Positions 4,612 to 63,553 of a stretch of 64,000 nucleotides of DNA are shown in pieces; the first letter of the stretch is position 1, and each line of letters opens with the position of its first letter. The translations under genes were made by a program, and so were the position numbers. The notes under the pieces were generated by a model. That model was given only the letters and a program-made list of their open reading frames with translations, searched no databases and was not told the DNA's origin. Source of the DNA: Gammaproteobacteria bacterium (GTDB lineage Bacteria > Pseudomonadota > Gammaproteobacteria > CBDBNL01 > JAAOII01); assembly GCA_965207705.1 (NCBI GenBank), contig OZ242292.1:1637276-1701275 (forward strand). The letters are read 5' to 3'.

Positions 4612-4703
4612 TACTTGTGTTAGTGTAATTGTCACTAATAAGTGACGGTTGACTTATATTGTTTTACAGGTTGGTGAAATAGATAAGTAGATAACGAATC
4701 ACA

Positions 4704-6179
4704 TTGAGCTATGTTATGTATAATCTTTTTAGAAAGACGAATGTCTTAGGACGTTGCGTGTTTAATGGGGATGCCACTCAGGTAGAACAAACTACCTCAA
4801 CTAACCTTTATATTAACTGCTACATAAGAATCAGGCGATATATACTTTTTCTTGTTACCCCTATAATTCTCTTCTCTTTAATCTCTTGTACCTTAGATGT
4901 AGCTAGCACTGATGATGAGTCGCCAACATCACCTCCCTCCAGCTCTAGTAGTGTTACTGCCAAAGGGTTGAGTTCTAATTATGTAAGCATATCCTGGGAT
5001 AGCGTCTTGGGTGCCACATACTATCAAGTATATAGCAGCACAGGGTTATTAGTTGCCACTGTTTTCCTTCCTGTCACTAATTATATTGTCACAGGTCTTT
5101 TGCCCAATACTGAATACATCTACCATGTAAGAGCATGTAATGTATCGGGCTGTTCAGATTTGACCAGCGTCTCCGCAACTACTGAGACCCCACCCATTAT
5201 CAATGGTACCGCTGAAGTTCCGCCCATCATCGATGTTACCGCGGAAGTTCCACCTGTCATTAATGTTACTGCTGAAGTTTCGCCTGTCATTAATGTTACT
5301 GCTGAAGTTCCAACTATCATCAGCAATGCCGCTGAACTTGCGGCTATTGGCACTAATAGCTCCACTTTATCTGGCGACTATATTCTAACTGGGAATATAG
5401 ACCTATCCACGATATCCAATTGGCGACCCATTGGCGATAACCCATCTAACGGATTTACTGGCAGTTTTGATGGTAATGGCTATAGCATAAGCGGGCTAAG
5501 TAGTTCGGGTTATGAATATGCCGGTTTGTTTGGCTATGTAAAAGACGCCTATATAAGTAATATTGGAGTTATAGCTGGCAATATATCCTCTTCTAATACT
5601 TTCGCTTCTTCAGCAGGAGGATTAGTTGGCTATGCTTATTATAGTGATATTAGCAACTCTTATGCAGTAGTTACGGACGATATATCCGCTTATGATGGAG
5701 GAGGGTTGGTTGGCTATGCTTATTATAGTGATATTAGCAACTCTTATGCAATGGTTGCGGATGATATATCTGCTTATGATAATTATGGTTCTTCGGCAGG
5801 AGGGTTGGTTGGCAAATTTAATGATAGTAAGATTAGTAATTCTTATGCAGTAGTTGCAGGTGATATATCTGCTTCTGATGATTACGGTTCTTTGGCGGGA
5901 GGGTTGATTGGCTATTTTGTTTACAGCTTTATATCAGTGGATTACGTTAATAAGGGCGCTCCAGTTAGTAATTCTTATTACAGCGCTAGCCGTGAATATT
6001 CGCAAGGGAGTTTTAGTAACTCTTTTGGAACTTATCAGACAGTTGATGAACTGCGCGCCTTAACTGCTGTGTCTACTGGCTGGGATGGGGCTATCTGGAA
6101 TTTTGGCACTGATGCCGACCTGCCAATGTTGGTTGCTACTCCTCTTACTGTGCCTTTGCCAAGTATTTTCCATGAATAG
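4704..6179 (+). CDS. surface lipoprotein with an FN3-like domain, five 10-aa tandem repeats and GLUG-motif beta-helix repeats (paralog 1 of 3)
   Basis: Internal lipoprotein signal (RIRRYILFLVTPIILFSLISC lipobox) at aa about 45-63. An FN3-like segment is followed by TAEVPPIINV x5. Then comes the conserved PTIISNAAELAAI...YILTGNIDLS...WRPIG...FTGSFDGNGYSISGL module and repeated GGLVGYAYYSDISNSYAVV (GLUG-type) units. The true start is unclear: no ATG, GTG or TTG lies immediately before the signal peptide. Confidence 0.75.
   Translation: MSYVMYNLFRKTNVLGRCVFNGDATQVEQTTSTNLYINCYIRIRRYILFLVTPIILFSLISCTLDVASTDDESPTSPPSSSSSVTAKGLSSNYVSISWDSVLGATYYQVYSSTGLLVATVFLPVTNYIVTGLLPNTEYIYHVRACNVSGCSDLTSVSATTETPPIINGTAEVPPIIDVTAEVPPVINVTAEVSPVINVTAEVPTIISNAAELAAIGTNSSTLSGDYILTGNIDLSTISNWRPIGDNPSNGFTGSFDGNGYSISGLSSSGYEYAGLFGYVKDAYISNIGVIAGNISSSNTFASSAGGLVGYAYYSDISNSYAVVTDDISAYDGGGLVGYAYYSDISNSYAMVADDISAYDNYGSSAGGLVGKFNDSKISNSYAVVAGDISASDDYGSLAGGLIGYFVYSFISVDYVNKGAPVSNSYYSASREYSQGSFSNSFGTYQTVDELRALTAVSTGWDGAIWNFGTDADLPMLVATPLTVPLPSIFHE
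5190..5339 (+). repeat. 5 tandem 30-bp repeats (encoding TAEVPPIINV-like decapeptides) inside GLUG paralog 1
   Basis: ccacccattatcaatggtaccgctgaagtt repeated with a few substitutions five times. The last unit diverges into the conserved IISNAAEL module, so it is a possible VNTR or contingency repeat. Confidence 0.85.
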
Positions 6180-7522: not shown

Positions 7523-9379
7523 ATGGCATTTTTTTCAAGCAAGGCGATAAGAAACCAGGTAGAGGAGAATAGAATCTTCCGCGTCCGTATAGGAGTGCTT
7601 AGTTTCATGCTTCTGATAATGTTTGTCGTAATATTGTCAAGAGTTGCCTACTTGCAATTAATCAACTATGATGAACAGATTAGTCGCGCTGAGGATTACC
7701 ACATAAGATTACGCACCATAACCCCAGAAAGAGGATTAGTGTATGATGCCAAAGGACGGTTATTGGCGGGCAACATATTATCTTATGCTTTATATATCCA
7801 TCCTCTTAAGATAAAGAACACAGAGCTTCTTATAAAGGGGATTGGAAAATTGCTCCCATTGAAAGAAGAAGCACTCCAAAGTTTTTATAAAGAGCTGGCA
7901 AATGTCAGAAGACGTAATCAGCTAATCTTGCTGCATGAAGTCCTTACCGAAGAAGAAATTGCCAAATTAATGGTTAATCGCTATAGATTATCTGGCATTG
8001 ATATTCAGCCACATTTTCAGAGATTTTATCCACAGGGGGAGTTAGTGAGTCATGCGATTGGTTACACAGGAATAGTATCGGATAAGGATAAGCAGAATAT
8101 TAATCTTGAATATTATAGCGACCTGAACAGAATAGGTAAATTAGGACTTGAACGTTTTTACGAAAAGGAGCTAAGAGGTGTTCCAGGTGTAGAAGAAGTT
8201 GGAGTTAATGCTTATGGCAGAGTAGTGGAAGTATATCGTCAGGAAAGACCACAAAGAGGGCTTGATATGTCGTTATGGCTTGATATGAGTATTCAAGAAT
8301 TTGTGTGGGATGTGCTTGGAGATAAAAAAGGGACGATTATAGTTTTGGATGCTAATAGCGGCGGGATTGTTTCAATGATTAGCAAACCATCTTATGATAA
8401 TAACAAGTTTGTTGCGGGGATTAGTCGCGCCGAGTTTGCTAAGCTGCGCAATCAGAAGTCCGCTCCATTACTTAACCGCGCAGTTGCTGGCAGATACCCG
8501 CCTGGCTCAACAATTAAGCCATTTTATTCCATCATTGCTTTGAGCAATGAAGTGGTTACACCTAAAGATACTATATTTGATGAAGGATATTTTAGCCCGC
8601 CTAATAGTGATATTGTATTTCGTAATTGGAAGAGATCGGGGCACGGCGAGGTTAATCTAAAACGGGCTATACGAGTGTCTTCAGACACATACTTTTATAA
8701 TCTGGCAGCCAACATGGGCTATGATTTGATGAGAGAAGGTCTTGAGAGATTTGGCTTTGGTAAAAAAAGCGCTCATGATATCCATGATGAATTAACCTTA
8801 CCCCTACCGACCGAACAATGGAAAATGGAAAAGTATAATCTTCCTTGGTTTCCTGGCGATACAGTTAATATGGGAATAGGGCAAGGGTATTTTGTATCCA
8901 CCCCTATGCAGCTGGCAGCTGCAACTTTAATTTTGGTTAACAAGGGCAAGAATATTAGACCGCGTCTGGTTAAACAAATTGCAACAGAGGCAATGTATGA
9001 AGGATCTCCAGATATGGCAATTAGTTCCGATGAAAAGAATTGGGACTTGGTCTTCGCAGGCATGGAGGAAGTTATGCATCACAAAGAAGGAACTGCAAGA
9101 AGAGCGGGCTATAATGCCGCCTATAGAATGGCTGGAAAAACAGGGACCTCGCAAGTGATATCTCTTAAAATTATTGAAGCAGCAAAAAGTGAGGGGCGGG
9201 AAATAAGGGAAGAGTGGGAAGACCATGCTTCGTTCACTGGATATGTGCCAGCAGATGACCCTAAGTATATAGTCACAGTTGTGTTAGAAAATGGCGGTTC
9301 TGGTTCTCGTGCTGCTCTGCTTGCAAGAGAAGTGACGGATTATCTAATATTAGGAGAAGATAAAATTGGGTTGAAATAA
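7523..9379 (+). CDS. mrdA: peptidoglycan D,D-transpeptidase PBP2 (MrdA)
   Basis: 618 aa with an N-terminal TM anchor, a PBP dimerisation domain and a transpeptidase domain (STIKP active-site serine motif, SSD, KTGT), located upstream of rodA. Confidence 0.92.
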   Translation: MAFFSSKAIRNQVEENRIFRVRIGVLSFMLLIMFVVILSRVAYLQLINYDEQISRAEDYHIRLRTITPERGLVYDAKGRLLAGNILSYALYIHPLKIKNTELLIKGIGKLLPLKEEALQSFYKELANVRRRNQLILLHEVLTEEEIAKLMVNRYRLSGIDIQPHFQRFYPQGELVSHAIGYTGIVSDKDKQNINLEYYSDLNRIGKLGLERFYEKELRGVPGVEEVGVNAYGRVVEVYRQERPQRGLDMSLWLDMSIQEFVWDVLGDKKGTIIVLDANSGGIVSMISKPSYDNNKFVAGISRAEFAKLRNQKSAPLLNRAVAGRYPPGSTIKPFYSIIALSNEVVTPKDTIFDEGYFSPPNSDIVFRNWKRSGHGEVNLKRAIRVSSDTYFYNLAANMGYDLMREGLERFGFGKKSAHDIHDELTLPLPTEQWKMEKYNLPWFPGDTVNMGIGQGYFVSTPMQLAAATLILVNKGKNIRPRLVKQIATEAMYEGSPDMAISSDEKNWDLVFAGMEEVMHHKEGTARRAGYNAAYRMAGKTGTSQVISLKIIEAAKSEGREIREEWEDHASFTGYVPADDPKYIVTVVLENGGSGSRAALLAREVTDYLILGEDKIGLK

Positions 9380-10544: not shown

Positions 10545-10876
10545 AATTCTGGTATGTTGCTTGAATTCACGACGCATTTCTGGTATGGTGTTTGAACGAA
10601 CGATGATGGTCTGTAGGGGCGGAGCTGCGCTCCGCCCGCAAAATGCATAATACTCGCGACAAACCATCAGCATGCTCGCATCGCTCTGCCCGCAAAATGC
10701 ATAACACTCGCGACAAACCCTCGCTATGCTCGCGACCTTCTTATATGTGATGCATAAATTCTTGCGACACCCGTTTGATATAATGCATAAATTCTTGCAA
10801 CACAGGTCTGTAGGGGCGGAGCTGTGCTCCGCCCGCAAAATGTATAATACTCGCGACAAACTCTCGGCATGCTCGC
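10545..10876. repeat. composite REP cluster: two full hairpin cores (10608-10660, 10802-10855), one core-less tail unit and a 27-bp tandem repeat (10549-10604)
   Basis: GGTCTGTAGGGGCGGAGCTGCGCTCCGCCCGCAAAATGCATAATACTCGCGACAAACC occurs twice, with a partial copy in between. Direct repeats CGACGCAATTCTGGTATGTTGCTTGAA and CGACGCATTTCTGGTATGGTGTTTGAA are also present. A 112-aa minus-strand ORF here is an artefact of the repeats. Confidence 0.85.
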
Positions 10877-29549: not shown

Positions 29550-30557
29550 TTATCCTTTAACTGCGCCAGCAGTGAGACCGGATATAATCCTCTTTTGAAA
29601 AATCAATACTAACACTACCAAAGGCACGGTTACTATTACTGATGCAGCCATTATGTCTCCCCAAGGAATCTCTTTATGGGATGCGCCAGAAAGCAATGCA
29701 ATGGCGACTGGGACAGTGCGCTGACTATCGCGCAGTATAAAAGTTAAGGCAAAAAGAAACTCATTCCAAGCAGCTATGAAAGCCAGCAGACCAGTGGTAA
29801 CTAATGATGGCCATAGTAACGGCATAAAAACTTTTGCCACAATGCGTAGGGGAGAGGCGCCGTCCATTATTGCTGCCTCTTCAAGCTCAATTGGAATTTC
29901 ACGCATAAAGGCAGTCAGAACCCACACAGTAAATGGCAGGGTGAATATCATATAGGAAAAGATTAATGACCCTAATGAGTTGAACAATCCAAAGAGAGAT
30001 ATTAATTCAAATAAACCAGAAAGAACTGATATTTGCGGGAACATTGACACGGATAAAATAGTTAATAATAGCAGCCCGCGCCCGCGAAAGCTTATACGAC
30101 TTAACGCATAGCTGGCAGTGACCGCCAGCGCTAATGAGATAGCTACTACCACAGTTGCCACTATAACCGAGTTCAGAAGGTTGCGCCCAAAAGAACCGCC
30201 CCTAAACACCGAAATATAGTTACTTATATCTATGGACTTTGGCAGATAATTAATTTCAAAAATAGCAGTCCCCGACTCAAATGAGGTTAGGATGGCATAA
30301 TAAAAAGGAAACACTGTAAAAAGTATGATGACACATATCATCCAAATTATCCACACCCTTAATGTCTGATTGAATAGATGACATACATAGCCAAAAGCCA
30401 ATCCCGCTAAAGCCGCCAACGCCTTACTGCCAAGCCCCCAGCTCATATCGGCGCTCTTGGCGATTAACGCCAATAGCAGCCATAATAATATTGCCTGCCC
30501 TATAATTTCCAGTCGTCTAAATAATGGAGGCATTTCCAGATTCATATATTTCGTCAT
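29550..30557 (-). CDS. sugar ABC transporter permease (MalG/UgpE-like)
   Basis: 6-TM BPD_transp_1 permease with an EAA loop (EAAIMDGASPLRI). Confidence 0.82.
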   Translation of the reverse strand: MTKYMNLEMPPLFRRLEIIGQAILLWLLLALIAKSADMSWGLGSKALAALAGLAFGYVCHLFNQTLRVWIIWMICVIILFTVFPFYYAILTSFESGTAIFEINYLPKSIDISNYISVFRGGSFGRNLLNSVIVATVVVAISLALAVTASYALSRISFRGRGLLLLTILSVSMFPQISVLSGLFELISLFGLFNSLGSLIFSYMIFTLPFTVWVLTAFMREIPIELEEAAIMDGASPLRIVAKVFMPLLWPSLVTTGLLAFIAAWNEFLFALTFILRDSQRTVPVAIALLSGASHKEIPWGDIMAASVIVTVPLVVLVLIFQKRIISGLTAGAVKG

Positions 30558-31474
30558 GACCCTAACTTAACCCTGCCAAGCTTTATATACAGTATGGTAA
30601 GGATTGAAATAATTAAGAATAATGCCGTGGAGGCACTGGCGCCATAACCGAACTTGGAAAAATCAAACATTTCAAGCTTGGCATAAACCGACATGCTCAT
30701 TGTTGCTTCATTGTTGGGAGTTAGCACATAAATCAAATCAAATATACGCAGTGAGTCCAAAGCGCGAAAAATTATTGCCACCATAAGTGGTTGTTTGATT
30801 AAAGGCAAGGTTATAAAGAAAAATCTTTTAATTGGGTGGATGCCGTCAACTTTCGCGGCTTCATACACTTCTCCAGGAAGCAATTGCAGAGCCGCCAAAG
30901 ATAACAATGTCATAAAGGGAGTGGTCTTCCAGACATCAGCTATTATGATAGCCACCATAGCTGTGTCTGGGGTTGCGGTCCAGGCAATTGGTTGGCTAAG
31001 AATACCAATTTGAATGAGAATATCATTAATTATTCCAAACTGGTCATTGAGCATCCAAGCCCACATCTTGGCGGATACTATTGTGGGAATTGCCCAGGGT
31101 ATGAGGATAGCAGCGCGCACGATAGCGCGTCCGCGAAATTGGACGTTGAGAGCCAGGGCGATTAGTAATCCTAAAACTGTTTCAATTGATACGGAAATAA
31201 CTGTAAAGTACAGAGTGTTCCAGACGGCTCGCCACCAGGAACTATTGGCGAATAAACCCCTTAGTTCGCCATTTTGATTAAGATGTAAGTAATTCTTAAA
31301 CCACACAAAATTATAATCGTCTTGTCCGAACTCCAATAAATCTGTGAAGCTAAAAAAGATAGTGCGTAGCAGGGGCCATGCCGCAGTAAAAGCTAGAACA
31401 GCTAACATGGGAGCCAAAAACAGCCATGCGGTCTTAACTCTCTGCTGTGTAAAAATACTTTGCTGACTCGGCAT
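30554..31474 (-). CDS. sugar ABC transporter permease (MalF/UgpA-like)
   Basis: 6-TM permease with an EAA loop (EAAKVDGIHPIKRFF), overlapping the downstream permease gene by 4 nt. Confidence 0.82.
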   Translation of the reverse strand: MPSQQSIFTQQRVKTAWLFLAPMLAVLAFTAAWPLLRTIFFSFTDLLEFGQDDYNFVWFKNYLHLNQNGELRGLFANSSWWRAVWNTLYFTVISVSIETVLGLLIALALNVQFRGRAIVRAAILIPWAIPTIVSAKMWAWMLNDQFGIINDILIQIGILSQPIAWTATPDTAMVAIIIADVWKTTPFMTLLSLAALQLLPGEVYEAAKVDGIHPIKRFFFITLPLIKQPLMVAIIFRALDSLRIFDLIYVLTPNNEATMSMSVYAKLEMFDFSKFGYGASASTALFLIISILTILYIKLGRVKLGS

Positions 31475-40537: not shown

Positions 40538-40581
40538 TGAAAAAATGCTAATAAAGTTTTATACACATTTTTATACACACT

Positions 40582-40659
<78 letters not shown>

Positions 40660-40664
40660 ATTTT

Positions 40665-42026
40665 ATGAGGATATGTTTTGCTGGCATATTCTTCATTCTA
40701 TCCACATCATTTTCTGCGAGCGCTGTTTCTGCTTTGCCTGATATAAGCGCTGGCACGCGCATATCTTCCGAGCAAGAAAAGCAGCTTGGACGCAATTGGC
40801 TTAGAAGCAACTACAGGATATTGAAGGCAGTGAATGATATTGCGCTGCAATCTTATGTTGAAGAATTAGTGCGCAGAATTAAGCAAGGACCAGAACTCTC
40901 CAAGTATGATATGAATATCGTCCTTATGGATAACCCCAATTTTAATGCTTTTGCTGTTCCTGGCGGGGTTATGGGTATTAATCTTGGCGTGCTGCAATTA
41001 GCGGAAAGCGAAGGAGAATTTGCCTCAGTTGTAGCGCATGAGTTGGCGCATCTTAGCCAAGACCATTTTATTAGACGGGTGGAAAGGGCAAGGACTACAA
41101 ACAGCGCCGCGCTTGTTTCAGTATTCACTGGCATTGGCTTGTTGCTGAGTGGAAATATTCCGCTGGCAGCGCTTGCCATTTATGGTGGAGCTAATTATCA
41201 ATTAGAATCATATCTTAGTTTATCGCGTCGTTTTGAACGAGAGGCGGATAGTCAGGCAACGGTATTTTTACGCAATAGTAATTTTGATTTATCCGAGATG
41301 GCAAATATGTTCTCCCGCTTAAACGCCCTTAGCGGTAATCAAGAGATTGCTGGATATGCCAGCACTCACCCCCTTACTATAGACAGAGTTAACTATGCAT
41401 TATTAAGAGCAGGGCAGCAACGTAGTCAAAAGTTCTATACTTCTGGCGATTATAGTTTTGTTCGGCTGCGCGCTCGGGCTATATTAGGAACTCTGCCGAT
41501 TATCTCAGGTTATGGAGCGGATGGCGATTATACCCGAGTTTTACAATTACAAAAACGTAATAAACACCTGCAAGCCAGCAAGATATTGAAAGCGCTGTAT
41601 AAGGATTACCCATTTTCGGTGATTATCTACTGCTCCTATCTTGAATCTATGATTGCATCAGGACAAACCGAAGAGGCAATCGCCAGTATAAATTACAAAT
41701 TACGCTATTCTTCTCGTGAAGGGTTTTTATATTATTTTCTTGCTCTTGCTTATGCCAAGCAGAAAGATTACACCAAGGCAGCGGCACAGATGGAAAAGTT
41801 GGCTTCCGCCACACCAGAGAATCCTGATGTGTGGCTTAAACTTTCTTTTTACTACAATAAATTAGAGGATAAATTTAATATATTTCGTTCCCGTTCTGTC
41901 TATCAACTATTAATTGGGGCTAAAAGAGAAATGCGCGAAAGCATACAGTTAGCCAAAGAAGAGGCAAAAGATGATGAGATTCTATTAGTTCAGTTGGATA
42001 ATCTGCACCAACGATTAATTAATTAG
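40665..42026 (+). CDS. bepA: BepA-like periplasmic M48 metalloprotease with TPR domain
   Basis: A signal peptide, the HEXXH motif (VVAHELAHLSQDH) with downstream Glu, and C-terminal TPR-like helical repeats. The ORF-track start at 40545 runs through the tRNA, so the ATG at 40665 is preferred. Confidence 0.8.
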   Translation: MRICFAGIFFILSTSFSASAVSALPDISAGTRISSEQEKQLGRNWLRSNYRILKAVNDIALQSYVEELVRRIKQGPELSKYDMNIVLMDNPNFNAFAVPGGVMGINLGVLQLAESEGEFASVVAHELAHLSQDHFIRRVERARTTNSAALVSVFTGIGLLLSGNIPLAALAIYGGANYQLESYLSLSRRFEREADSQATVFLRNSNFDLSEMANMFSRLNALSGNQEIAGYASTHPLTIDRVNYALLRAGQQRSQKFYTSGDYSFVRLRARAILGTLPIISGYGADGDYTRVLQLQKRNKHLQASKILKALYKDYPFSVIIYCSYLESMIASGQTEEAIASINYKLRYSSREGFLYYFLALAYAKQKDYTKAAAQMEKLASATPENPDVWLKLSFYYNKLEDKFNIFRSRSVYQLLIGAKREMRESIQLAKEEAKDDEILLVQLDNLHQRLIN

Positions 42027-42047: not shown

Positions 42048-42076
42048 TTGACTTTATACAACTAATTACTTATAAT
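42048..42076 (+). promoter_or_regulatory. near-consensus sigma70 promoter (TTGACT-N17-TATAAT) upstream of GLUG lipoprotein paralog 2
   Basis: -35 TTGACT at 42048-42053 and perfect -10 TATAAT at 42071-42076. Confidence 0.55.
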
Positions 42077-42084
42077 TAACTACT

Positions 42085-43986
42085 ATGGATGTATATGATA
42101 CTGGTACCTATTTAATAGGTAAGAAATCAGGAGGTATAATTGGAGCTACAACTGGAGGCGATATTGTCAGCAATAATCACCACGGTTTTATATTCAAAAG
42201 AATATCCCCACTGCTACTTTTACTAACCTGCGTTTTGCTTCTAACTGCTTGTGCAAGTGGTAAAAGTGGTGAAAGTAATCCTGTTACAGATATTATGGAA
42301 GATGCTCCAAATTTTGAAGATTCTCCAAATTTTGAAGATGCTCCAAATTTTACTGCCTCTGTTTATAGTTTTGTAGCCATCTCCATTGATTTAGAAGGTA
42401 AAGTATTAGGCAGAGTTGAGGCAACAATTAGTGCGAATAACTCTAACCAAGCCGCTCCCAACTACGCTTATGCTGCGGATAATGGCGCAGCCGATGATAT
42501 TTTTACCCTTAACCCCACCACTGGAGACATTGCATTAAAACGCTCGCTTGTTACTGCGGATACAGGGGATTATGTTTTTGCTGTCATAGCTAAACAAAGG
42601 GGAAATTCTGCTGAAGGACGCGCTAATGTTACTGTAAAGATATTAGATATAGAAGGAGATGAGGATATGGATGGCTTCATGAATGCTTATGATGTAGCGC
42701 CAATGAATAGGACAGTTAATGTCAGCGGTACTGGCATTCCTGGCGACCCTTATATTATTAGCAATATCTATCAGCTGCAGGCAATTGACGGAGTGGATCA
42801 TAAACATAGATATCTTAACAGAACCTCCCTCGCTACTAATGGTCAGTGGTTATATGGCGCTAACCGCACTGCTCAGTTACAAAGTAGTTATCAGCTCAGC
42901 AATGATATAAATGCAAAGGTAACGCGCGACTGGAATGGAGGTGAGGGCTTTAACCCGATTGGTGATTGCGGCGGCACTTCATGTTATGCTACTCCAATAA
43001 ATCCTTTCAGTGGGGTTTTTAACGGTGCTGGTTTTACGGTGGATAATTTATTTATAAATCGCACAGAAGATGGTGAGATGAGAGGCAATATCGGCTTATT
43101 CGCTTTAACTGGTAATGCTAAGATAATGAATTTGGGGCTGGAGAATTTGAACATAACCGTGTCAGTTCTTGCTAGAGAACTTGCTACGGGAATTGGGGGA
43201 TTGATAGGAGGAACGCGAGAGGAATTACAGCAGTTAGCCGCTAATTTAAATCATGTTTATGTGACTGGGAATATACAAGCTATAGACAAGTCACCTAATT
43301 CAAACAATTCCATATATGTAGGCGGGTTAATCGGTGAGGCAATAATTAATATAGATATTAAAAATTCTTATACAATTGTTAATCTTATTGGAGGCAGCCA
43401 CCAAGGAGGTTTATTGGGGGTAAATCTTGCTAATACAAAGGTATTTAAATCATATTCACTTAATAGAATAAGTGGAACTGGGACTGGAGGAGGGTTGTTA
43501 GGAGCTGACAGGCTTAGATTTTCTCCCACTGCCTCTTATACAGTGAGTTATGCAAATACTTCTGATGATGTATTCAGCTTGGTGGGTTTGAAGGTTACAG
43601 GCAGACCAGTAGATAGCAATACCTCTTATTGGCAGAGTGAAATGGAGGGAGGGATGGTTAAAGGGGTAGTAAGAAGCTTAGATGGCACTGCGTCTAAGGG
43701 ATTAAGTGTGGCGCAACTGCAGAATTGTGAATTAGATGGGGTTATGATTGATGGCACATCTGCAGGAGTTTGTGCTGGGCTGTTTGCTGAAGGTACGGAT
43801 GCCGATCCTCTGTGGGGCGATCAAACTGAGGATGGAGTTACCACTGGTTGGGACTTTTTACCTGTTGGTGAATATCCCTATCTGTTTGCCAACGATGACG
43901 AAGGCAGAGACCTATTGCCAACAGTTGCTGAACAAAGATGCCAACGCAATAAAATTTTCTACAACCTCCCCTGCGCCACCGAATAA
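42085..43986 (+). CDS. surface lipoprotein with calcium-binding Asp-rich motifs and GLUG-motif beta-helix repeats (paralog 2 of 3)
   Basis: An internal lipoprotein signal (FKRISPLLLLLTCVLLLTAC) is followed by an EDAPNF x3 repeat. Then comes the conserved DPYIISNIYQLQAI...WNGGEGFNPIG...FSGVFNGAGFTVDNL module and G-G-L-I/L-G repeats. Confidence 0.75.
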   Translation: MDVYDTGTYLIGKKSGGIIGATTGGDIVSNNHHGFIFKRISPLLLLLTCVLLLTACASGKSGESNPVTDIMEDAPNFEDSPNFEDAPNFTASVYSFVAISIDLEGKVLGRVEATISANNSNQAAPNYAYAADNGAADDIFTLNPTTGDIALKRSLVTADTGDYVFAVIAKQRGNSAEGRANVTVKILDIEGDEDMDGFMNAYDVAPMNRTVNVSGTGIPGDPYIISNIYQLQAIDGVDHKHRYLNRTSLATNGQWLYGANRTAQLQSSYQLSNDINAKVTRDWNGGEGFNPIGDCGGTSCYATPINPFSGVFNGAGFTVDNLFINRTEDGEMRGNIGLFALTGNAKIMNLGLENLNITVSVLARELATGIGGLIGGTREELQQLAANLNHVYVTGNIQAIDKSPNSNNSIYVGGLIGEAIINIDIKNSYTIVNLIGGSHQGGLLGVNLANTKVFKSYSLNRISGTGTGGGLLGADRLRFSPTASYTVSYANTSDDVFSLVGLKVTGRPVDSNTSYWQSEMEGGMVKGVVRSLDGTASKGLSVAQLQNCELDGVMIDGTSAGVCAGLFAEGTDADPLWGDQTEDGVTTGWDFLPVGEYPYLFANDDEGRDLLPTVAEQRCQRNKIFYNLPCATE

Positions 43987-43991
43987 ACCAC

Positions 43992-44250
43992 GCATAAATA
44001 CTTGGTATATAGGTCTGCTGTAGGGGCGGAGCCAGGGGGGATGAATATAGGAACCGCCCGCAAAATGCCTAACTCTCGCGATGTACCATCGGGATACTCG
44101 CAACATACCCCTGGTATGATGCATAAATACTTGCATTGTACTTATGTTCGGTGCATAAATACTTGGTATATAGGTCTGTAGGGGCGGAGCTGCGCTCCGC
44201 CCGCAAAATGCCTAAATCTTGCGATGTACCATCGGGATGCTCGCGACACC
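43992..44250. repeat. REP pair: one element with the 15-nt module inserted into the hairpin loop, one canonical element
   Basis: The first copy is GGGGCGGAGCC-AGGGGGGATGAATATAG-GAACCGCCCGCAAAATGCCTAACTCTCGCGATG, whose loop carries the reverse complement of the CTATATTCATCCCCC unit seen at 163-300. The second copy is canonical: GGTCTGTAGGGGCGGAGCTGCGCTCCGCCCGCAAAATGCCTAAATCTTGCGATG. Confidence 0.85.
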
Positions 44251-48512: not shown

Positions 48513-48605
48513 AGTACTTCTTATTGTTAATATTCTTTATAAGGGCTTTTATTATTAATTCAAGATGTAAATTAGCTTAGTTTTGTTTATGGGGTGAATA
48601 TTTTA

Positions 48606-48848
48606 CGGGCGTAGCAAGAATTTGGACGTCATGCAGGAGTTCATCGCGAGCATGGTTATGATTTATCGCAAGAGTTAGGCATTTTGCGGGCGGAGCGCAG
48701 CTCCGCCCCTACAGACCTATATACCAAGAATTTAAGTATTATACCAAGGGTGTTTTGCAAGAATTCTGATGGTTTGTTGCGAGAGTTAGGCATTTTGCGG
48801 GCGGAGCGCAGCTCCGCCCCTACAGACCTATATACCAAGAATTTTTAA
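48606..48848. repeat. tandem pair of REP elements (reverse orientation) with shared flanking modules
   Basis: GCGAGAGTTAGGCATTTTGCGGGCGGAGCGCAGCTCCGCCCCTACAGACCTATATACCAAGAATTT occurs twice about 120 bp apart, immediately downstream of the dprA stop. Confidence 0.85.
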
Positions 48849-55324: not shown

Positions 55325-55398
55325 CGGGGTATAGCGCAGCTTGGTAGCGCGCCTGCTTCGGAAGCAGGAGGTCGTAAGTTCAAATCTTGCTACCCCGA
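55325..55398 (+). tRNA. tRNA-Pro (anticodon CGG)
   Basis: Acceptor stem CGGGGTA/TACCCCG, D-arm GCGC-AGCTTGGTA-GCGC, anticodon stem CCTGC/GCAGG with loop TTCGGAA, T-arm GTAAG-TTCAAAT-CTTGC, and discriminator A. CCA is not encoded. Confidence 0.85.
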
Positions 55399-59317: not shown

Positions 59318-59450
59318 ATGCATTTTGAATTCTTGGAACGATGGTCTGTAGGGGCGGAGCTGCGCTCCGCCCGCAAGGTGCTCAATACTTGCGACACGCT
59401 ATCCCCATGCTCGCGATAACACTATTGCCATGCTCCGCCCGCAAAATGCC
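59318..59450. repeat. REP element (full core + tail, and a second core-less tail)
   Basis: GGTCTGTAGGGGCGGAGCTGCGCTCCGCCCGCAAGGTGCTCAATACTTGCGACACGCTATCCCCATGCTCGCGA followed by TGCTCCGCCCGCAAAATGCC. Its 3' end supplies the -35 TTGACT of the downstream promoter. Confidence 0.85.
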
Positions 59451-59478
59451 TTGACTTTAATTCATAATCATTTATAAT
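59451..59478 (+). promoter_or_regulatory. near-consensus sigma70 promoter (TTGACT-N16-TATAAT) upstream of GLUG lipoprotein paralog 3
   Basis: -35 at 59451-59456 and -10 at 59473-59478. The ORF-track ATG at 59477 overlaps the -10, so the lipoprotein start at 59510 is favoured. Confidence 0.55.
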
Positions 59479-59509
59479 GTTATATATGAATATATCCAGA
59501 TTTATACCA

Positions 59510-62332
59510 ATGAAAACATCAGCGCTACTATTTTCGCTAATTTGCATCTTGACGCTGGCTGCCTGTGCTGGCGGAGGCGGCGGTGGCGGAGGTAGCACAC
59601 CAGGAGGCAAACCTAATCCCCCTCCCGCTGGAATTGGCGTATTAAACTTACGGGTTATCCCTGATGAAACCAACGCTACTCTTATATGGAATAACCCTGA
59701 TGTGAATATAACCAGCATTAATATAACCTACCACAACAAAAGTACCCCTGATGCTTTACAATACTTCCCTTTAATAACAGAGGAAGATAGCATTAGCTCC
59801 AATGCAACAAACGTAACTAAAGTGATAACTAATTTAGAAGAGGGGTCAATCTATATCTTTAATGTTCGTTTGGAACTGGGCGGTGCCGATGAAAATAAAA
59901 CTGTGAATAGAGAATTATCCGAAACCCGCTTAATTGGTCCCAACCTTGACCAAGACGAATATGCGGATGCCGACCTTCTTGAAACGGATGAAGATGGAGA
60001 TGGCGTCAATGATAATCTGGATGCTTTCCCTCGCAATACCACTTTGTCCGCCTTTGCGGTTACAGAATTATCCGCACGTCCTGGCAACGGCGAGGTCACC
60101 CTTAGCTGGAATAATCCAGTTGCAGAAATAGCCAGCATTAGTATAAGCTACCAAAGAGATGATTTTGTTGGTCAACTTATGATGAATAGCAGCGCTCAAA
60201 TAACCTCTGGCGAACAGAATGTGCAAGAAACCATAGAAGGACTAACCAACGGACAATCCTATACTTTTAATGTTACCTTGACATTAACTGGCGATGATGC
60301 TGCTAAGAAAGTAATGGTAGCATCCACTACTGCAACTCCTGGCGCCTTTTCAGTAATAGATTTAGCAGCGTCTCCTGGAGCTGGCAATGTAACTCTTAAC
60401 TGGAATAATCCAGATGCAGATATAGCCAGCATTAGCATAAGCTATGAAGTTACTGGTTCTGGCATGTCCACAACAGTGGGAGCTAGCAACACTGGCAGAG
60501 GTGCGAGTGTGGAACAAACCATAACTGGACTAACCAACGGACAATCATATACTTTCAATATTAGCTTAACATTGCAAAATGATGATGCTGGCAGGGAAGG
60601 CATGGCGGTATCTGACACCGCAACTCCTAACGTCTTTGCAGTAACAGATTTAACAGCGATTCCTAACGACAGCAGCGTCACTCTTAGCTGGATAAATCCA
60701 GATGCAGATATAGCCAGCATTAGTATAAGCTATTATGAAGTTACTGGTTCTGGTGCGTCCACAACAGTGGGAGCAAGCAACATTGGCAGGGAAGCGAGTG
60801 TGGAAGAAACCATAGATGGCTTAGATAACGAAGTATCCTATAACTTCACTGTTAGTTTAACTTTAGGTGGTGACATCTATGCTGGCAGGGAAGGACCTGC
60901 GTTATCTATTATTGTGGGTATTGGACCCAATTTAGATGGAGACGAATATGCTGATTTTGTGGATAATGACGTTGATGGCGATAGTTTTATCAATGCTGAT
61001 GACGTAGATGATGACGGCGATGGCCTGATAGAGATTGCCACTGCGGCGCAACTTGACCAGATTCGCTATAATCTATTGGGCAGTAGTTTGAATACAAGCG
61101 ATGGAGTAGCCGGCGATGCCAGCGGTTGCGGCGGGCTAAACGACATCAGCGAATGCAACGGCTATGAGCTTACACATAATATATCCCTTGACGGCTATCC
61201 CAACTGGGTGCCAATTGGCAGCTGCGGAGACTTCGAGGGTACTGGCGAGAATCCTTGTACTACTGTGAGTTCATTATTCAGCACTACTTTTGATGGCAAT
61301 GGTTGGACAATTAGCAATCTTACTATAACAAACCCTGCTGCCCCCTACAACAACGCGGCAGGATTGTTTGGTGCAATCAGCCCTGATTCTATTCTGCGTA
61401 ATGTTCATATACGATCTGCCAACATTAGCGGTGGTGACAGTAATGTGGGGCTGTTGGTTGGTTATGCACAAAGAGCAAGAATTAGCAATAGTTCCGCAGA
61501 AGGAGAGGTTATGGCTACTGTGAGTGGGAAGAAGGTCGGCGGTCTGGTTGGTGATGGGGCGAACGCCAATATAACTTCATCTTATGTGACTGGCGGGTCT
61601 ATCAGCGGGCTTAGTAGTATTGGTGGTCTGATTGGTGCTGGAAATTTTGCCGTGATTACATCATCTTATGCGATGAATATTACTGTCCTTAGTGATAACA
61701 ATAATGCTGGCGGTCTGGTTGGTGCTGGAAATTTTGCCATCATTACATCATCTTATGTGGTTGGCGGGTCTGTCATCGGGCTGGATAGAGTTGGCGGTAT
61801 GGCTGGTAATGGGGAGAGCAGTACCAAGATTACTTTGTCTTATGTGGGGGACTTGTTTATCAGTGGAAGGAGTAATATTGGCGGCATGGTTGGGGGTGGT
61901 AATAGCATAATCACTTCGTCTTATGTGGGAGGTGGTGTTGACATCATAGGTACCGGTAGGAACATCGGCGGTATGATTGGTTCTGGGGATGGCGCTACCA
62001 TCAAATCGTCTTATGTTGCGGCTGATACTATCAGCGGGACTAGTCATTTCGGCGGTATACTTGGTTTTGGGACTCTTAATGCTGCCAGCTCCAACTCCTA
62101 TTGGAATAACGAGACGAGCGGTATAACTGGTGGAAGTGTGGCCGGTAAAAGCGAAGGCAAAACCACTGATGAATTGCGGAACCCAGAAATGTTTGTAGGG
62201 AGTATTTATGCAACTTGGGAGGATGATATGTGTGGTGGCGATGATGACTCCATTGCCTGGGATTTAGGCAACTCAACCCAATACCCCGCCCTCAACTGCA
62301 CTCCCGGCGGCAAAGATGCCCAGCGTCCATAA
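59510..62332 (+). CDS. large surface lipoprotein with a poly-Gly linker, four FN3-like about 97-aa repeats, thrombospondin-type-3-like Asp-rich Ca-binding motifs and about 8 GLUG-type beta-helix repeats (paralog 3 of 3)
   Basis: Signal MKTSALLFSLICILTLAAC (lipobox), then GGGGGGGGS. Repeats LSWNNPDADIASISISY...TGSG...TITGLTNGQSYTFN occur four times. GPNLDGDEYADFVDNDVDGDSFINADDVDDDGDG follows. Then comes the conserved IEIATAAQLDQIRYNL...WVPIG...FDGNGWTISNL module and repeated IGGLIGAGNFAVITSSYV units. Confidence 0.8.
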   Translation: MKTSALLFSLICILTLAACAGGGGGGGGSTPGGKPNPPPAGIGVLNLRVIPDETNATLIWNNPDVNITSINITYHNKSTPDALQYFPLITEEDSISSNATNVTKVITNLEEGSIYIFNVRLELGGADENKTVNRELSETRLIGPNLDQDEYADADLLETDEDGDGVNDNLDAFPRNTTLSAFAVTELSARPGNGEVTLSWNNPVAEIASISISYQRDDFVGQLMMNSSAQITSGEQNVQETIEGLTNGQSYTFNVTLTLTGDDAAKKVMVASTTATPGAFSVIDLAASPGAGNVTLNWNNPDADIASISISYEVTGSGMSTTVGASNTGRGASVEQTITGLTNGQSYTFNISLTLQNDDAGREGMAVSDTATPNVFAVTDLTAIPNDSSVTLSWINPDADIASISISYYEVTGSGASTTVGASNIGREASVEETIDGLDNEVSYNFTVSLTLGGDIYAGREGPALSIIVGIGPNLDGDEYADFVDNDVDGDSFINADDVDDDGDGLIEIATAAQLDQIRYNLLGSSLNTSDGVAGDASGCGGLNDISECNGYELTHNISLDGYPNWVPIGSCGDFEGTGENPCTTVSSLFSTTFDGNGWTISNLTITNPAAPYNNAAGLFGAISPDSILRNVHIRSANISGGDSNVGLLVGYAQRARISNSSAEGEVMATVSGKKVGGLVGDGANANITSSYVTGGSISGLSSIGGLIGAGNFAVITSSYAMNITVLSDNNNAGGLVGAGNFAIITSSYVVGGSVIGLDRVGGMAGNGESSTKITLSYVGDLFISGRSNIGGMVGGGNSIITSSYVGGGVDIIGTGRNIGGMIGSGDGATIKSSYVAADTISGTSHFGGILGFGTLNAASSNSYWNNETSGITGGSVAGKSEGKTTDELRNPEMFVGSIYATWEDDMCGGDDDSIAWDLGNSTQYPALNCTPGGKDAQRP
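60052..60920 (+). repeat. three tightly similar tandem repeats of about 290 bp (FN3-like modules) inside GLUG paralog 3; a fourth diverged copy lies at about 59640-59950
   Basis: Units start at about 60052, 60347 and 60634 (TTTGCGGTTACAGAATTATCC, TTTTCAGTAATAGATTTAGCA, TTTGCAGTAACAGATTTAACA) and share long near-identical stretches, for example AGATGCAGATATAGCCAGCATTAGTATAAGCTAT. Confidence 0.85.
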
Positions 62333-62338
62333 AGGGTC

Positions 62339-62447
62339 CTGCGACGCAGGTCTGTTGTAAGGGCGGAGCCAGGGGGAATGAATATAGTTTCCGCCCGCAA
62401 GATGTCTAAAACTTGCGACGGACTGTCGGCATACTCGCGATAACATA
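62339..62447. repeat. REP element with the 15-nt module inserted in the hairpin loop
   Basis: GGTCTGTTGTAAGGGCGGAGCC-AGGGGGAATGAATATAG-TTTCCGCCCGCAAGATGTCTAAAACTTGCGACGG...CATACTCGCGATAAC has the same architecture as the first copy at 43992-44250. Confidence 0.8.
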
Positions 62448-62449
62448 AT

Positions 62450-63553
62450 ATGACAGACAGAGGTTTTCTAACACTGGCAGATGGCGCCAACCGTTATAAA
62501 CGCAGCGCCTACTATGTGCAAATGGCGAAGGGACTTATCCGCTCCATTAAACAATATGATACTAATGACACCAACTTCCCCGTTGCCATTATCAGCGATA
62601 GCCAGGATAAAGAACTGGCAAGCATGGCTGATGCTGTCATCAAACCAAAATCCGAATATGGGTTGGGAACTGTGCACAAACTATTTATTGATGCTTACAG
62701 CCCCTTCCAAGAAACCATATTTATTGAAGCGGACTGCCTTCTCTACACCGAACCACAACTACTATGGCAGATGATGACTGCGGATAATCTGCCCGTAGCA
62801 ATCCAACGTCAAGGGACAAAAGAGTTTGTCAGCGGTGATGGTAATTTTGCCATTGAAGACGTTACTCATTACCTTAACAAGTGCGGAATTACTAAGTTCT
62901 CCCACACTATAGGGGGTCTAATGTACTTTAATAGGAGCACCAAAGCACAGCAGGTTTTTGCCACAGCGCGAGAGCTATACGAAAAGCGTCAAGAAATTGG
63001 CTTGCGCCCTCTACAACAAATACCTGTCGCCGATGAAACAGTATTTGCCACTGCTTTAGCCATGCATAATATTCCTACACTACCCGCAGATAAAGTGCTG
63101 CTACAAGAAGAGTTCCGCATAATTAAGCGAAGGGGCTATAGCAAGCTAAACGTCTTGGTAAAGGGCGGCGCCCTTGTAACCCACTCTGGAGCTCCTCAAA
63201 CCTTGGTAGGACATTATTCGGCATTGGATAAGTTTACATTTGTATATATAAGAGAGTTGCAAAGATTGGCGCTATATAACAAGCTGAAACCATTACTTGG
63301 TGACACTGGTGACTCTGGTGATTCGTCAAAGAGTGAGTATACAAGAGTTGATTCATCAAGAGGGGATGCGCCAGACGATGCAACTCTATTCTTGATAACC
63401 CTACTGGCTACACTAACAGCAATTCCAACATTTTTAGTAATGAAAAAACGCAGGATTGCTTATTTGCTTTCAATGCTTTGGGGCAGATACAAAGTTGAGG
63501 GGATTAAGGGCTTAGTACCAAACAGAATTAAACCTAAAATTAAACCAAAATAA
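62450..63553 (+). CDS. hypothetical membrane-anchored protein, possibly a GT8-like nucleotide-diphospho-sugar transferase (GT-A fold)
   Basis: The N-terminus FLTLADGANRY...AKGLIRSIKQY......FPVAIISD and a later IFIEADCLLY (DxD-like) resemble the glycosyltransferase family 8 layout. A C-terminal hydrophobic helix (LFLITLLATLTAIPTFLVM) and a basic tail are present. The assignment is weak. Confidence 0.35.
   Translation: MTDRGFLTLADGANRYKRSAYYVQMAKGLIRSIKQYDTNDTNFPVAIISDSQDKELASMADAVIKPKSEYGLGTVHKLFIDAYSPFQETIFIEADCLLYTEPQLLWQMMTADNLPVAIQRQGTKEFVSGDGNFAIEDVTHYLNKCGITKFSHTIGGLMYFNRSTKAQQVFATARELYEKRQEIGLRPLQQIPVADETVFATALAMHNIPTLPADKVLLQEEFRIIKRRGYSKLNVLVKGGALVTHSGAPQTLVGHYSALDKFTFVYIRELQRLALYNKLKPLLGDTGDSGDSSKSEYTRVDSSRGDAPDDATLFLITLLATLTAIPTFLVMKKRRIAYLLSMLWGRYKVEGIKGLVPNRIKPKIKPK

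Follow-up and report, generated by a model that had tools for sequence, protein, structure and literature searches.

Multigene families of variable surface lipoproteins are known from several bacteria, for example Mycoplasma (Vlp, Vsa and Vsp) and Borrelia (Vlp and Vsp). Repetitive extragenic palindromes (REPs), which are mobilised by RAYT transposases, are likewise a described class of element. The GLUG β-helix, on the other side, has barely been studied, with only four papers in the literature searched naming the motif or domain, and a lipoprotein family built on it offers a possible route to its function. Here, we analysed a 64,000-nt stretch of DNA (the window) from an uncultured gammaproteobacterium, with a focus on a gene near its 3′ end. 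The account that we favour, with some reservation, is that this gene is a self-contained lipoprotein cassette, comprising a lipid anchor, an FN3 stalk and a GLUG helix, in a strain-variable, recombining array, and that the REP next to it is merely a neighbour.

The gene is a genuine open reading frame that spans 59477–62332 on the forward strand. An earlier note on this DNA had described this gene at 59451–62332, and the frame stands. Its start is neither 59477 nor 59510: the family keeps the ATG at 59486, and the paralogs carry AAT at the place of the ATG at 59510. Read from the family-conserved ATG, the coding sequence (59486–62332, forward strand, stop codon counted) yields a product of 948 residues. 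From the N to the C terminus, the lipobox LAAC and a Gly/Pro tether are followed by one FN3 module, an Asp-rich block, three further FN3 modules, another Asp-rich block, a nine-coil GLUG β-helix, and a Cys-paired C-terminal cap. The label ‘paralog 3’ given to it previously is appropriate, since the family profile also matches 4695–6176 and 42076–43983 in the window. Searching with the protein returned no meaningful match in NCBIfam and no match in the GTDB-representative genomes scanned, and a literature search for GLUG, lipoprotein and FN3 in combination retrieved nothing relevant.

The locus lies between oadB and a downstream gene of 367 aa. In the window it carries one cassette. At the same syntenic position, four genes are found in L001, five in L083/L002, four plus an IS in L084, at least four in L085, and at least two in L087, with flanks that are 96.3% (L083) and 97.6% (L001) identical to the window upstream and 92–94% downstream. 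The arrays of this family run head to tail with 57-bp spacers. Within a cassette, the ends are better conserved than the interior: identity is 88–93% from the promoter to the tether and 85% at the 3′ ends, and the mean pairwise identity of the promoter block is 93%, versus 72–78% for the gene interior. Across 100 family members, the FN3 modules number from 1 to 8 and the GLUG units from about 2 to 16. With 17–19 or more paralogs per genome of roughly 2 Mb, these large lipoprotein genes take up a few percent of that genome. Judging from the syntenic loci, the window gene is the only copy left of a tandem array that varies in copy number and module content between close strains. In the mechanism we propose, the better-conserved 5′ and 3′ ends of the cassettes would serve as sites of recombination through which the oadB-proximal array gains, loses and reassorts cassettes, the outcome being mosaic genes with differing FN3 numbers and β-helix surfaces; in the genome of the window, the array would have shrunk to one chimeric gene.

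A more far-reaching reading, which we put forward only tentatively, is that the array is a selected diversity-generating locus, in which recombination via the conserved ends shuffles and deletes self-contained leaderless cassettes and trades them among strains that live together, leaving each strain with its own set of FN3-GLUG surface adhesins, and in which REPs have been repeatedly recruited against the −35 hexamer as insulators or modulators. If true, the locus would represent a previously undescribed variable-lipoprotein system in Gammaproteobacteria.

Regarding expression, a sigma-70-type promoter-like block is found at 59451–59478 on the forward strand, with the −35 hexamer TTGACT at 59451–59456, a 16-nt spacer, and the −10 hexamer TATAAT at 59473–59478. 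It agrees with the consensus at 11 of 12 positions and is the best match in the region. Consensus promoter sites numbered 12, compared with an expectation of 7.4 from shuffled sequence. The arrangement TTGACT-16-TATAAT-7/8-ATG precedes all 22 cassettes from six strains (the window and five others), in five kinds of upstream context, the distance from the end of the −10 to the ATG being 7 nt in the window and 8 nt in most paralogs. The ATG at 59486 has no Shine-Dalgarno sequence, and an SD-like motif is present in only 8 of 42 window genes. A TAnAAT hexamer ending 5–12 nt before the ATG occurs in 13 of 43 window genes; several unrelated window genes share a −10 that ends 7–8 nt before the ATG, as does paralog 2 at 42085. 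Because the ATG sits 7 nt after the −10 of the putative promoter, the mRNA is probably leaderless or near-leaderless. The cassette would be self-contained, with a promoter (TTGACT-16-TATAAT), an ATG 7 nt further on, and the lipobox following.

Alternatively, the two hexamers might not be a working promoter, with transcription arriving from upstream (for example, from oadGAB) and the AT-rich spacer serving as an SD-independent translation-initiation region. The array spacers of merely 57 bp, with no terminator detected between cassettes, are in keeping with this possibility, as are the AU-rich, SD-less composition of the spacer and the weak evidential value of consensus matches given their frequency in shuffles. 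However, the quality of the match, the retention of hexamers and spacing in every one of the 22 copies, and the recurrence of the same −10-to-ATG geometry before unrelated genes and paralog 2 all argue against it, and read-through from oadB would probably be hampered by the intervening REP hairpin. We regard this alternative as unlikely, and prefer the reading that each cassette has its own promoter. Speaking against our own reading, the promoter is a consensus match whose conservation could partly stem from recent duplication, and the genes of an array could be co-transcribed.

The gene product is probably an exported lipoprotein with an N-terminal lipid anchor on Cys27. The signal peptide (59486–59566, forward strand) ends in the lipobox L-A-A-C, for which the sequence MNISRFIPMKTSALLFSLICILTLAAC fits the pattern [LVI][ASTVI][GAS]C, and Ala26 and Cys27 are invariant in 42 family members; the codon of the predicted lipidated Cys27 is at 59564–59566. 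Both the LTLAAC and the GGGGGGGGS described earlier are present, the latter’s Gly run being encoded by GGCGGAGGCGGCGGTGGCGGAGG (59570–59592). This run (Gly8, 59570–59593) belongs to a Gly/Pro-rich tether, AGGGGGGGGSTPGGKPNPPPAG, at 59567–59635 on the forward strand, modelled with pLDDT <50. The tract had been suspected of being slippage-prone. Its length does vary, from 2 to 9 residues across 18 complete cassettes; on the other hand, it is an imperfect GGN run of equal length in the five closest copies. Since it can alter only in frame, a phase-variation switch at the Gly tract is ruled out. Indirect support for processing by Lgt/LspA/Lnt and for a final location in the outer membrane or at the surface comes from the Ala at +2, the three Cys pairs in the mature part that are conserved in the family, and the disordered tether. 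For a Lol-sorted lipoprotein in a gammaproteobacterium, surface exposure is not the default.

The tether leads to the FN3 modules. Pfam fn3 recognises four stretches (E 8e-23; 80.8 bits versus a gathering score of 25), and the AF2 model folds them as seven-strand β-sandwiches with pLDDT 65–86; by both score and fold they belong to PF00041. Module 1 (59636–59929, forward strand; pLDDT about 80–86 over its β-sandwich strands) is set off by the first Asp-rich block, and modules 2–4 follow head to tail at 60050–60919 on the same strand, with periods of 294 and 288 nt. Thus, the four modules expected from the earlier note are there, but only three of them are in tandem. Its description of three near-identical 290-bp repeats does not hold: the repeats are 64–80% identical in DNA, modules 2–4 share 47–66% identity in protein (32–35% between module 1 and the others), and TRF reports 79% matches over 2.1 copies. 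The number of modules was predicted to vary, and it does, with 4, 4, 4, 5 or 8 in the last-of-array gene depending on the strain. This prediction came true although its premise, long near-perfect repeats, was wrong.

Two Asp-rich blocks interrupt and terminate the FN3 region, both with the motif IGPNLD.DEYAD. Block 1, LIGPNLDQDEYADADLLETDEDGDGVNDNLDAFPRN (59930–60049, forward strand), has 12 Asp/Glu among 40 residues and resembles a thrombospondin type 3 repeat, its DEDGDGVNDNLDAFP fitting the DxDxDGxxDxxDxxP core; block 2, IGPNLDGDEYADFVDNDVDGDSFINADDVDDDGDG (60920–61024, forward strand), contains DxDxDG-type loops and is modelled with pLDDT <50. Some family members (P0032, P0087, and a 2191-aa protein in L086) do reach Pfam TSP_3. 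In the window gene, by contrast, Phe stands where the canonical repeat has Cys, the TSP_3 (PF02412) score of block 1 is 16.6 bits and so below the cut-off of 25, block 2 has no match in Pfam, and both blocks are modelled with low confidence. Of the TSP3-like Ca2+-binding motifs claimed before, the Asp-rich blocks themselves are therefore real and the TSP_3 assignment falls short; Ca2+ binding by them is plausible, if weakly supported. In our picture, the stalk would consist of four FN3 modules and two acidic linkers, both probably Ca2+-binding, of which one breaks the row of modules and the other follows module 4.

Beyond the stalk lies a right-handed β-helix (61025–62095, forward strand), which begins with an N-terminal cap containing the Cys pairs 548/557 and 580/591 and continues with nine GLUG coils, not the eight counted previously, at a period of 81–90 nt. 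It is closed by the C-terminal cap (SYWNNETSG...KTTDELRNP...WDLG..QYPALNC; 62096–62329, forward strand) with the Cys pair 916/938. Pfam GLUG (PF07581) was not reported when the full-length protein was scanned; scanning the C-terminal 435 aa alone gave 22.6 bits versus the cut-off of 20.5, and precomputed PF07581 matches exist in most family members. The coils, of 28–29 residues, form a right-handed helix as in solved GLUG domains. Gram-positive IgA1 metalloproteases have such a β-helix as their N-terminal domain (PDB 7uvk, 7jgj and 6xja), and another is known from BACOVA_03286 of Bacteroides ovatus (PDB 3n6z). Unlike the IgA1 proteases, the window protein has no M26 module, HExxH motif, G5 domain or LPXTG anchor, and it is a lipoprotein that bears its helix distally on an FN3 stalk.

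Alternatively, the helix could be catalytic, acting on polysaccharides as a lyase or hydrolase or contributing to a protease, in which case the protein would be a degradative enzyme on a tether instead of an adhesin. We consider this doubtful. The protein contains neither HExxH nor HxxEH and matches no peptidase family in Pfam or NCBIfam. In the pneumococcal enzyme, the catalytic residues are outside the helix domain (PMC7695701). Membership of peptidase M26 (IgA1 metalloprotease/Zmp) was rejected on the lack of HExxH and of any peptidase-family match, the helix domain alone being alignable. In our model, the nine-coil GLUG helix would be distal and, like the N-terminal domain of streptococcal IgA1 proteases, non-catalytic, and the product would be anchored in the outer membrane and serve in adhesion or ligand binding. 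The most likely function, as far as sequence and predicted structure can tell, is that of a diversifying, adhesin-like outer-membrane lipoprotein.

How the window gene came to stand alone can be read in part from its mosaic make-up. Strain ctg6176_9x shares a 2,512-nt segment (59669–62180, forward strand) with the window at 100% identity, in the gene that ends its array (L001 gene 4), with apparent recombination breakpoints at 59668/59669 and 62180/62181, and the flanks are 94.4–97.6% identical to L001 (2–6% different; dS 0.11–0.15). More generally, the cassettes have mosaic identity profiles, with values between 53% and 100% per 150-nt bin, and dN/dS is 0.4–1.5 in cassette domains versus 0.01–0.18 in flanking genes, estimates that come from few sites and from alignments of repetitive sequence. 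These patterns are signs of recent cassette exchange between strains. No recombinase was found beside the locus, and the sole inverted repeat in the window gene is an 18-nt pair with 83% complementarity. The 5′ 220 nt of the window gene have no exact donor among the cassettes of the other strains, the best being L085 gene 2 with 98% over 106 nt, and for this reason the history of deletion and recombination at the locus is only partly reconstructed. The window gene may conceivably be a first-of-array 5′ end fused to a last-of-array body; speaking against this, its 5′ end is matched better by other genes than by those at the head of an array.

One might suspect that the assembly has collapsed several cassettes into one, without any real deletion, as tandem paralogs are a classic cause of collapse. 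This is very improbable, given that the cassettes differ from each other by 13–35%, too much for collapse in long-read assembly, that the window appears to belong to a contig of 2.06 Mb, that none of the cassettes of other strains on its own accounts for the 5′ 220 nt, and that the junctions to both flanks are clean. A genuine reduction of the array is thus the reading we retain.

As the earlier note stated, a REP lies beside the promoter. The REP-like element (59340–59450, forward strand) has a GTAG head at 59348–59351, a perfect 9-bp palindrome, GGGCGGAGC-tgc-GCTCCGCCC, at 59352–59372, and a tail, and a second, half copy, GCTCCGCCCGCAAAATGCC, at 59432–59450 directly abuts the −35. Allowing up to 2 mismatches, the window contains 15 matches to the REP 13-mer, versus 0.88 expected, and the many intergenic copies can be aligned. 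Like known REPs, the element has the conserved GTAG head and the perfect palindrome and is intergenic, multi-copy and clustered; it differs in its long conserved 3′ tail (gcaaaatgcMtaaNNctcgcgac...catgctcgc) and in comprising 1.5 units. Rfam returned two tRNAs only and no family matching the REP, and DNA folding of the region shows the hairpin with an overall z-score of only −0.49. The element is kept before the first array gene in L001 (96.7% identity) and missing in L083 and L084. On the 3′ side of the stop codon, a small hairpin (62338–62350) and a REP variant with an enlarged loop (together 62338–62440, forward strand) are conserved after the last array gene in L001 and L002.

The REP had been credited with donating the −35 hexamer. 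A REP adjoins the promoter in only 4 of 22 cassettes; 15 come directly after another cassette’s 3′ end and one comes after an IS. All 22 are headed by the same TTGACTTTAATTYATAAT...TATAAT...ATG block. That a REP insertion created or captured the promoter has next to no chance of being correct: although the half-copy ...GCTCCGCCCGCAAAATGCC passes straight into TTGACT in the window and in L001 gene 1, and the last L084 gene likewise has a REP right next to its −35, such that REPs do recur beside the promoter, an identical −35, spacer and −10 exist at 18 cassettes with no adjacent REP, including the first-of-array alleles of L083 and L084 (oadB stop, no REP, then cacttgcaaaatatctaCC-TTGACT), seven native bases (ATCTACC) part the REP from TTGACT in L085, and in other window copies the REP consensus runs on after AATGCC as TAACTCTCGCGA, not TTGACT. 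The putative promoter is a part of the cassette, and the upstream REP is its neighbour, not its source. A REP-made promoter would have exemplified how a repeat element creates a promoter; the evidence does not support it.

Taken as a genome comparison, the locus clearly illustrates how an uncultured bacterium can be hypervariable from strain to strain: at about 96–97% flank identity, the copy number varies from 1 to 5, the FN3 modules at one position from 4 to 8, and the β-helix surface as well. Hypervariable loci of this kind usually mark an interface with the host, phage or neighbouring cells, and the array loci are useful strain markers and candidates for adhesin and receptor studies. Compared with the Vlp/Vsa/Vsp systems, the window family differs in having no switching device: a reversible switch was sought at the locus as an invertible promoter, a homopolymer or short-repeat tract in the promoter or frame, or silent cassettes, and none was found, all cassettes having their own promoter-like block, ATG and lipobox. 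The variation documented here is between strains, not within a clone. In common with those systems, and in line with the multigene families of phase and antigenic variation, in which a conserved expression region is joined to a variable exposed region, it is a large paralogous lipoprotein family with a conserved expression and signal-peptide region, divergent modular exposed parts, varying internal repeat numbers, and genes made mosaic by recombination.

The gene under study lies between oadB and a gene for a 367-aa protein, and the number of family genes at this position differs between strains. The window has one (948 aa), as opposed to four in ctg6176_9x (L001; 996, 937, 951 and 960 aa), five in the 2.24-Mb genome (L083/L002; 1080, 931, 1021, 1225 and 1028 aa), four in ctg5554_3x (L084) together with an IS, at least four in ctg5047_2x (L085) and at least two in ctg5878_5x (L087). 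Identity to the window is 96.3% (L083) and 97.6% (L001) in the upstream flank and 92–94% in the downstream flank, with a flank dS of 0.11–0.15 and dN/dS of 0.01–0.18. The 367-aa gene (62450–63553, + strand; no match in Pfam or NCBIfam) sits directly 3' of the array in every strain examined (363–367 aa). The IS in ctg5554_3x (L084 3353–4393, rve-family transposase) separates the first and second cassettes, a cassette being one family gene plus its own TTGACT/TATAAT block. Sample ERZ25069764 contains at least four co-occurring strains (L001, L087, L084 and L085; contig coverages 9x, 5x, 3x and 2x) with differing array versions, which makes its population strain-heterogeneous here.

The headline of the earlier note, that the REP just 5' of the gene created or donated the promoter's −35 box, is refuted by the comparison of cassettes, while its observations were confirmed in part and its wider interpretation is partly supported. 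A REP-like element is present, with GTAG at 59348–59351, a perfect 9-bp palindrome at 59352–59372, a conserved tail and a second half-copy ending at 59450; directly 3' of it is TTGACT-16-TATAAT (59451–59478), the best promoter match in the region (11/12). However, the same block (TTGACTTTAATTYATAAT..TATAAT, then ATG 7–8 nt on) precedes 22/22 cassettes in the window and the five other strains' loci, and only four have a REP upstream. Fifteen follow the 3' end of the preceding cassette, one follows an IS element and two follow the oadB stop codon with no REP. In L083, a REP-less case, the sequence is TAAcacttgcaaaatatctaCC-TTGACT; in L085, a native ATCTACC stands between REP and TTGACT; and the other REP copies in the window run on as TAACTCTCGCGA, not TTGACT. 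The promoter therefore moves together with its cassette. The REP, ending 0–7 nt from the −35, is a polymorphic neighbour, and REPs recur against the −35 in two different array positions.

At ≤2 mismatches, the window contains 15 matches to the REP 13-mer, where 0.88 would be expected. The repeats, for which there is no Rfam family, share a GTAG head, the palindrome GGGCGGAGC/GCTCCGCCC and a tail that is long and conserved, and occur singly or as clusters of 2–3 units (260, 10629–10838, 13042 (−), 44051–44206, 48603–48807 (−), 59364–59444 and 62356–62440); a variant with a 21-nt loop insertion is found at 44051 and 62356.

The cassettes are mosaics. Identity to the window gene swings from 53% to 100% in 150-nt bins. 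All differences from L001 gene 4 fall in the stretch up to 59668 or from 62181 onward, so that 2,512 nt are perfectly identical though the flanks differ by 2–6%. In the comparison with the 2.24-Mb genome's last gene, identity is almost complete over the beta-helix half but 71–79% over the FN3 half. No exact donor for the window gene's 5' 220 nt was found among the other strains' cassettes. In 18 complete cassettes, conservation is higher at the ends than in the interior, mean pairwise identity being 93% from promoter to ATG, 88% in the first 150 nt of CDS, 72–78% in the interior and 85% in the last 60 nt. Within cassettes, dN/dS is 0.4–0.8 in FN3 modules and 0.6–1.5 in GLUG coils, values that are suggestive only. 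Between cassettes, dS reaches 0.6–0.9, far above strain dS, which suggests that the array predates the strains; the one-gene state in the window is best read as a deletion.

An ORF scan of the window gives an uninterrupted frame at 59477–62332 (+), with three in-frame candidate start ATGs (59477, 59486 and 59510). In an alignment of the 5' region with four paralogs from one related strain, conservation is limited to the ATG at 59486: the paralogs have AAT at the position of 59510 and no ATG at 59477; a 948-aa protein is therefore most likely. Its N-terminus is MNISRFIPMKTSALLFSLICILTLAAC, with a lipobox at residues 24–27 (LAAC) in which A26 and C27 do not vary across 42 family members. Many family gene calls carry long N-terminal extensions (MLTTATQQRNSQGN...) that are probably spurious. 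A 36-nt, 12-codon indel, TTSNRIAINNQS, after codon 4 in the signal peptide, is polymorphic, about a third of cassettes carrying the insertion (e.g., L001 10010–10046 and the homologs P0001, P0002, P0007, P0009 and others); its patchy spread across arrays suggests that 5' ends have been exchanged.

The −10 ends 7 nt 5' of ATG 59486, and no Shine-Dalgarno sequence precedes this ATG. Transcription from bacterial sigma-70 promoters usually starts about 7 nt past the −10, and thus the mRNA would probably begin at or beside the ATG, i.e., be leaderless. TAnAAT ends 5–12 nt before the ATG in 13/43 window genes, several with a good −35, and an SD-like motif occurs in only 8/42, so leaderless mRNAs may be common in this gammaproteobacterium. 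Examples of a TATAAT-like hexamer near the ATG are at 7523, 10925, 13199, 30554–31474 (−), 32971, 34806 and 42085.

A protein homology search gave 146 hits; about 100 have FN3/GLUG architecture and derive from a few contigs of roughly 2 Mb, each holding at least 17–19 paralogs. The family profile finds two further members in the window, at 4695–6176 (paralog at 4704–6179, +; E 3e-17) and 42076–43983 (paralog at 42085–43986, +; E 1e-17), which bears out the label 'paralog 3'. The paralog at 42085 has TTGACT-17-TATAAT-8-ATG geometry, with REPs just 3' of the gene. Upstream, a tRNA (40582–40656, +) lies within the mechanical ORF 40545–42026, whose true start must therefore be further downstream; a second tRNA is at 55325–55398. 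The 2.24-Mb genome has a second array-like locus (L086 3315–16486) encoding a 2191-aa GLUG/TSP_3 protein, then 1372-aa and 756-aa genes. The window ClpB has a 100% identical copy in one genome and is 98–99% identical in sister strains; beyond these, the nearest MAGs are at 82% and 75%.

Several internal features differ from their first description. The supposedly near-identical FN3 repeats have a 288-nt period (2.1 copies, 79% matches by TRF), 64–80% identity in a pairwise DNA repeat search and, for modules 2–4, which alone are head-to-tail, 47–66% protein identity; module 1 is 32–35% identical to the others. Their number does vary between strains as predicted, the last-of-array gene having four (window, L001 and L084), five (L002) or eight (L087). 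An imperfect GGN tract (TRF score 33) codes for the Gly8 run; among cassettes the run ranges over 2–9 residues, which agrees with the expected length variation, but it is constant in the five closest copies. Pfam identifies four FN3 domains (E 8e-23); GLUG (PF07581) reaches 22.6 bits against a gathering score of 20.5 only in a scan restricted to the C-terminal 435 residues, and the sequence register gives nine coils rather than eight. Of the proposed TSP3-like Asp-rich blocks, the first is sub-threshold (16.6 vs 25 bits) and the second has no TSP_3 match in Pfam. No NCBIfam family covers the protein, which belongs to the FN3, GLUG and lipoprotein classes.

The full-length structure model (pLDDT 70) has four beta-sandwiches, a disordered tether (residues 1–48) and low confidence in both acidic blocks. 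The family conserves three Cys pairs (548/557, 580/591 and 916/938), in keeping with an extracytoplasmic protein. The window protein is most likely an adhesin-like lipoprotein anchored in the outer membrane. In structural comparison, the beta-helix is closest to those of the Gemella IgA1 protease (7uvk; 28.7, 21% identity), Bacteroides ovatus BACOVA_03286 (3n6z; 27.8, 23%; top Foldseek rank) and the pneumococcal IgA1 protease (7jgj; 23.7, 20%), with generic pectate-lyase-like helices from various structures at 20 or less (5–13%). In the pneumococcal enzyme this helix serves as a gating domain without catalytic function, the catalytic HExxH being located outside it (PMC7695701); HExxH was not found in the window protein, and an IgA1 protease identity was rejected. 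While no switching device was found for it, the window family resembles the variable-lipoprotein families, with cassette recombination as the process that would diversify the distal GLUG helix and FN3 stalk.
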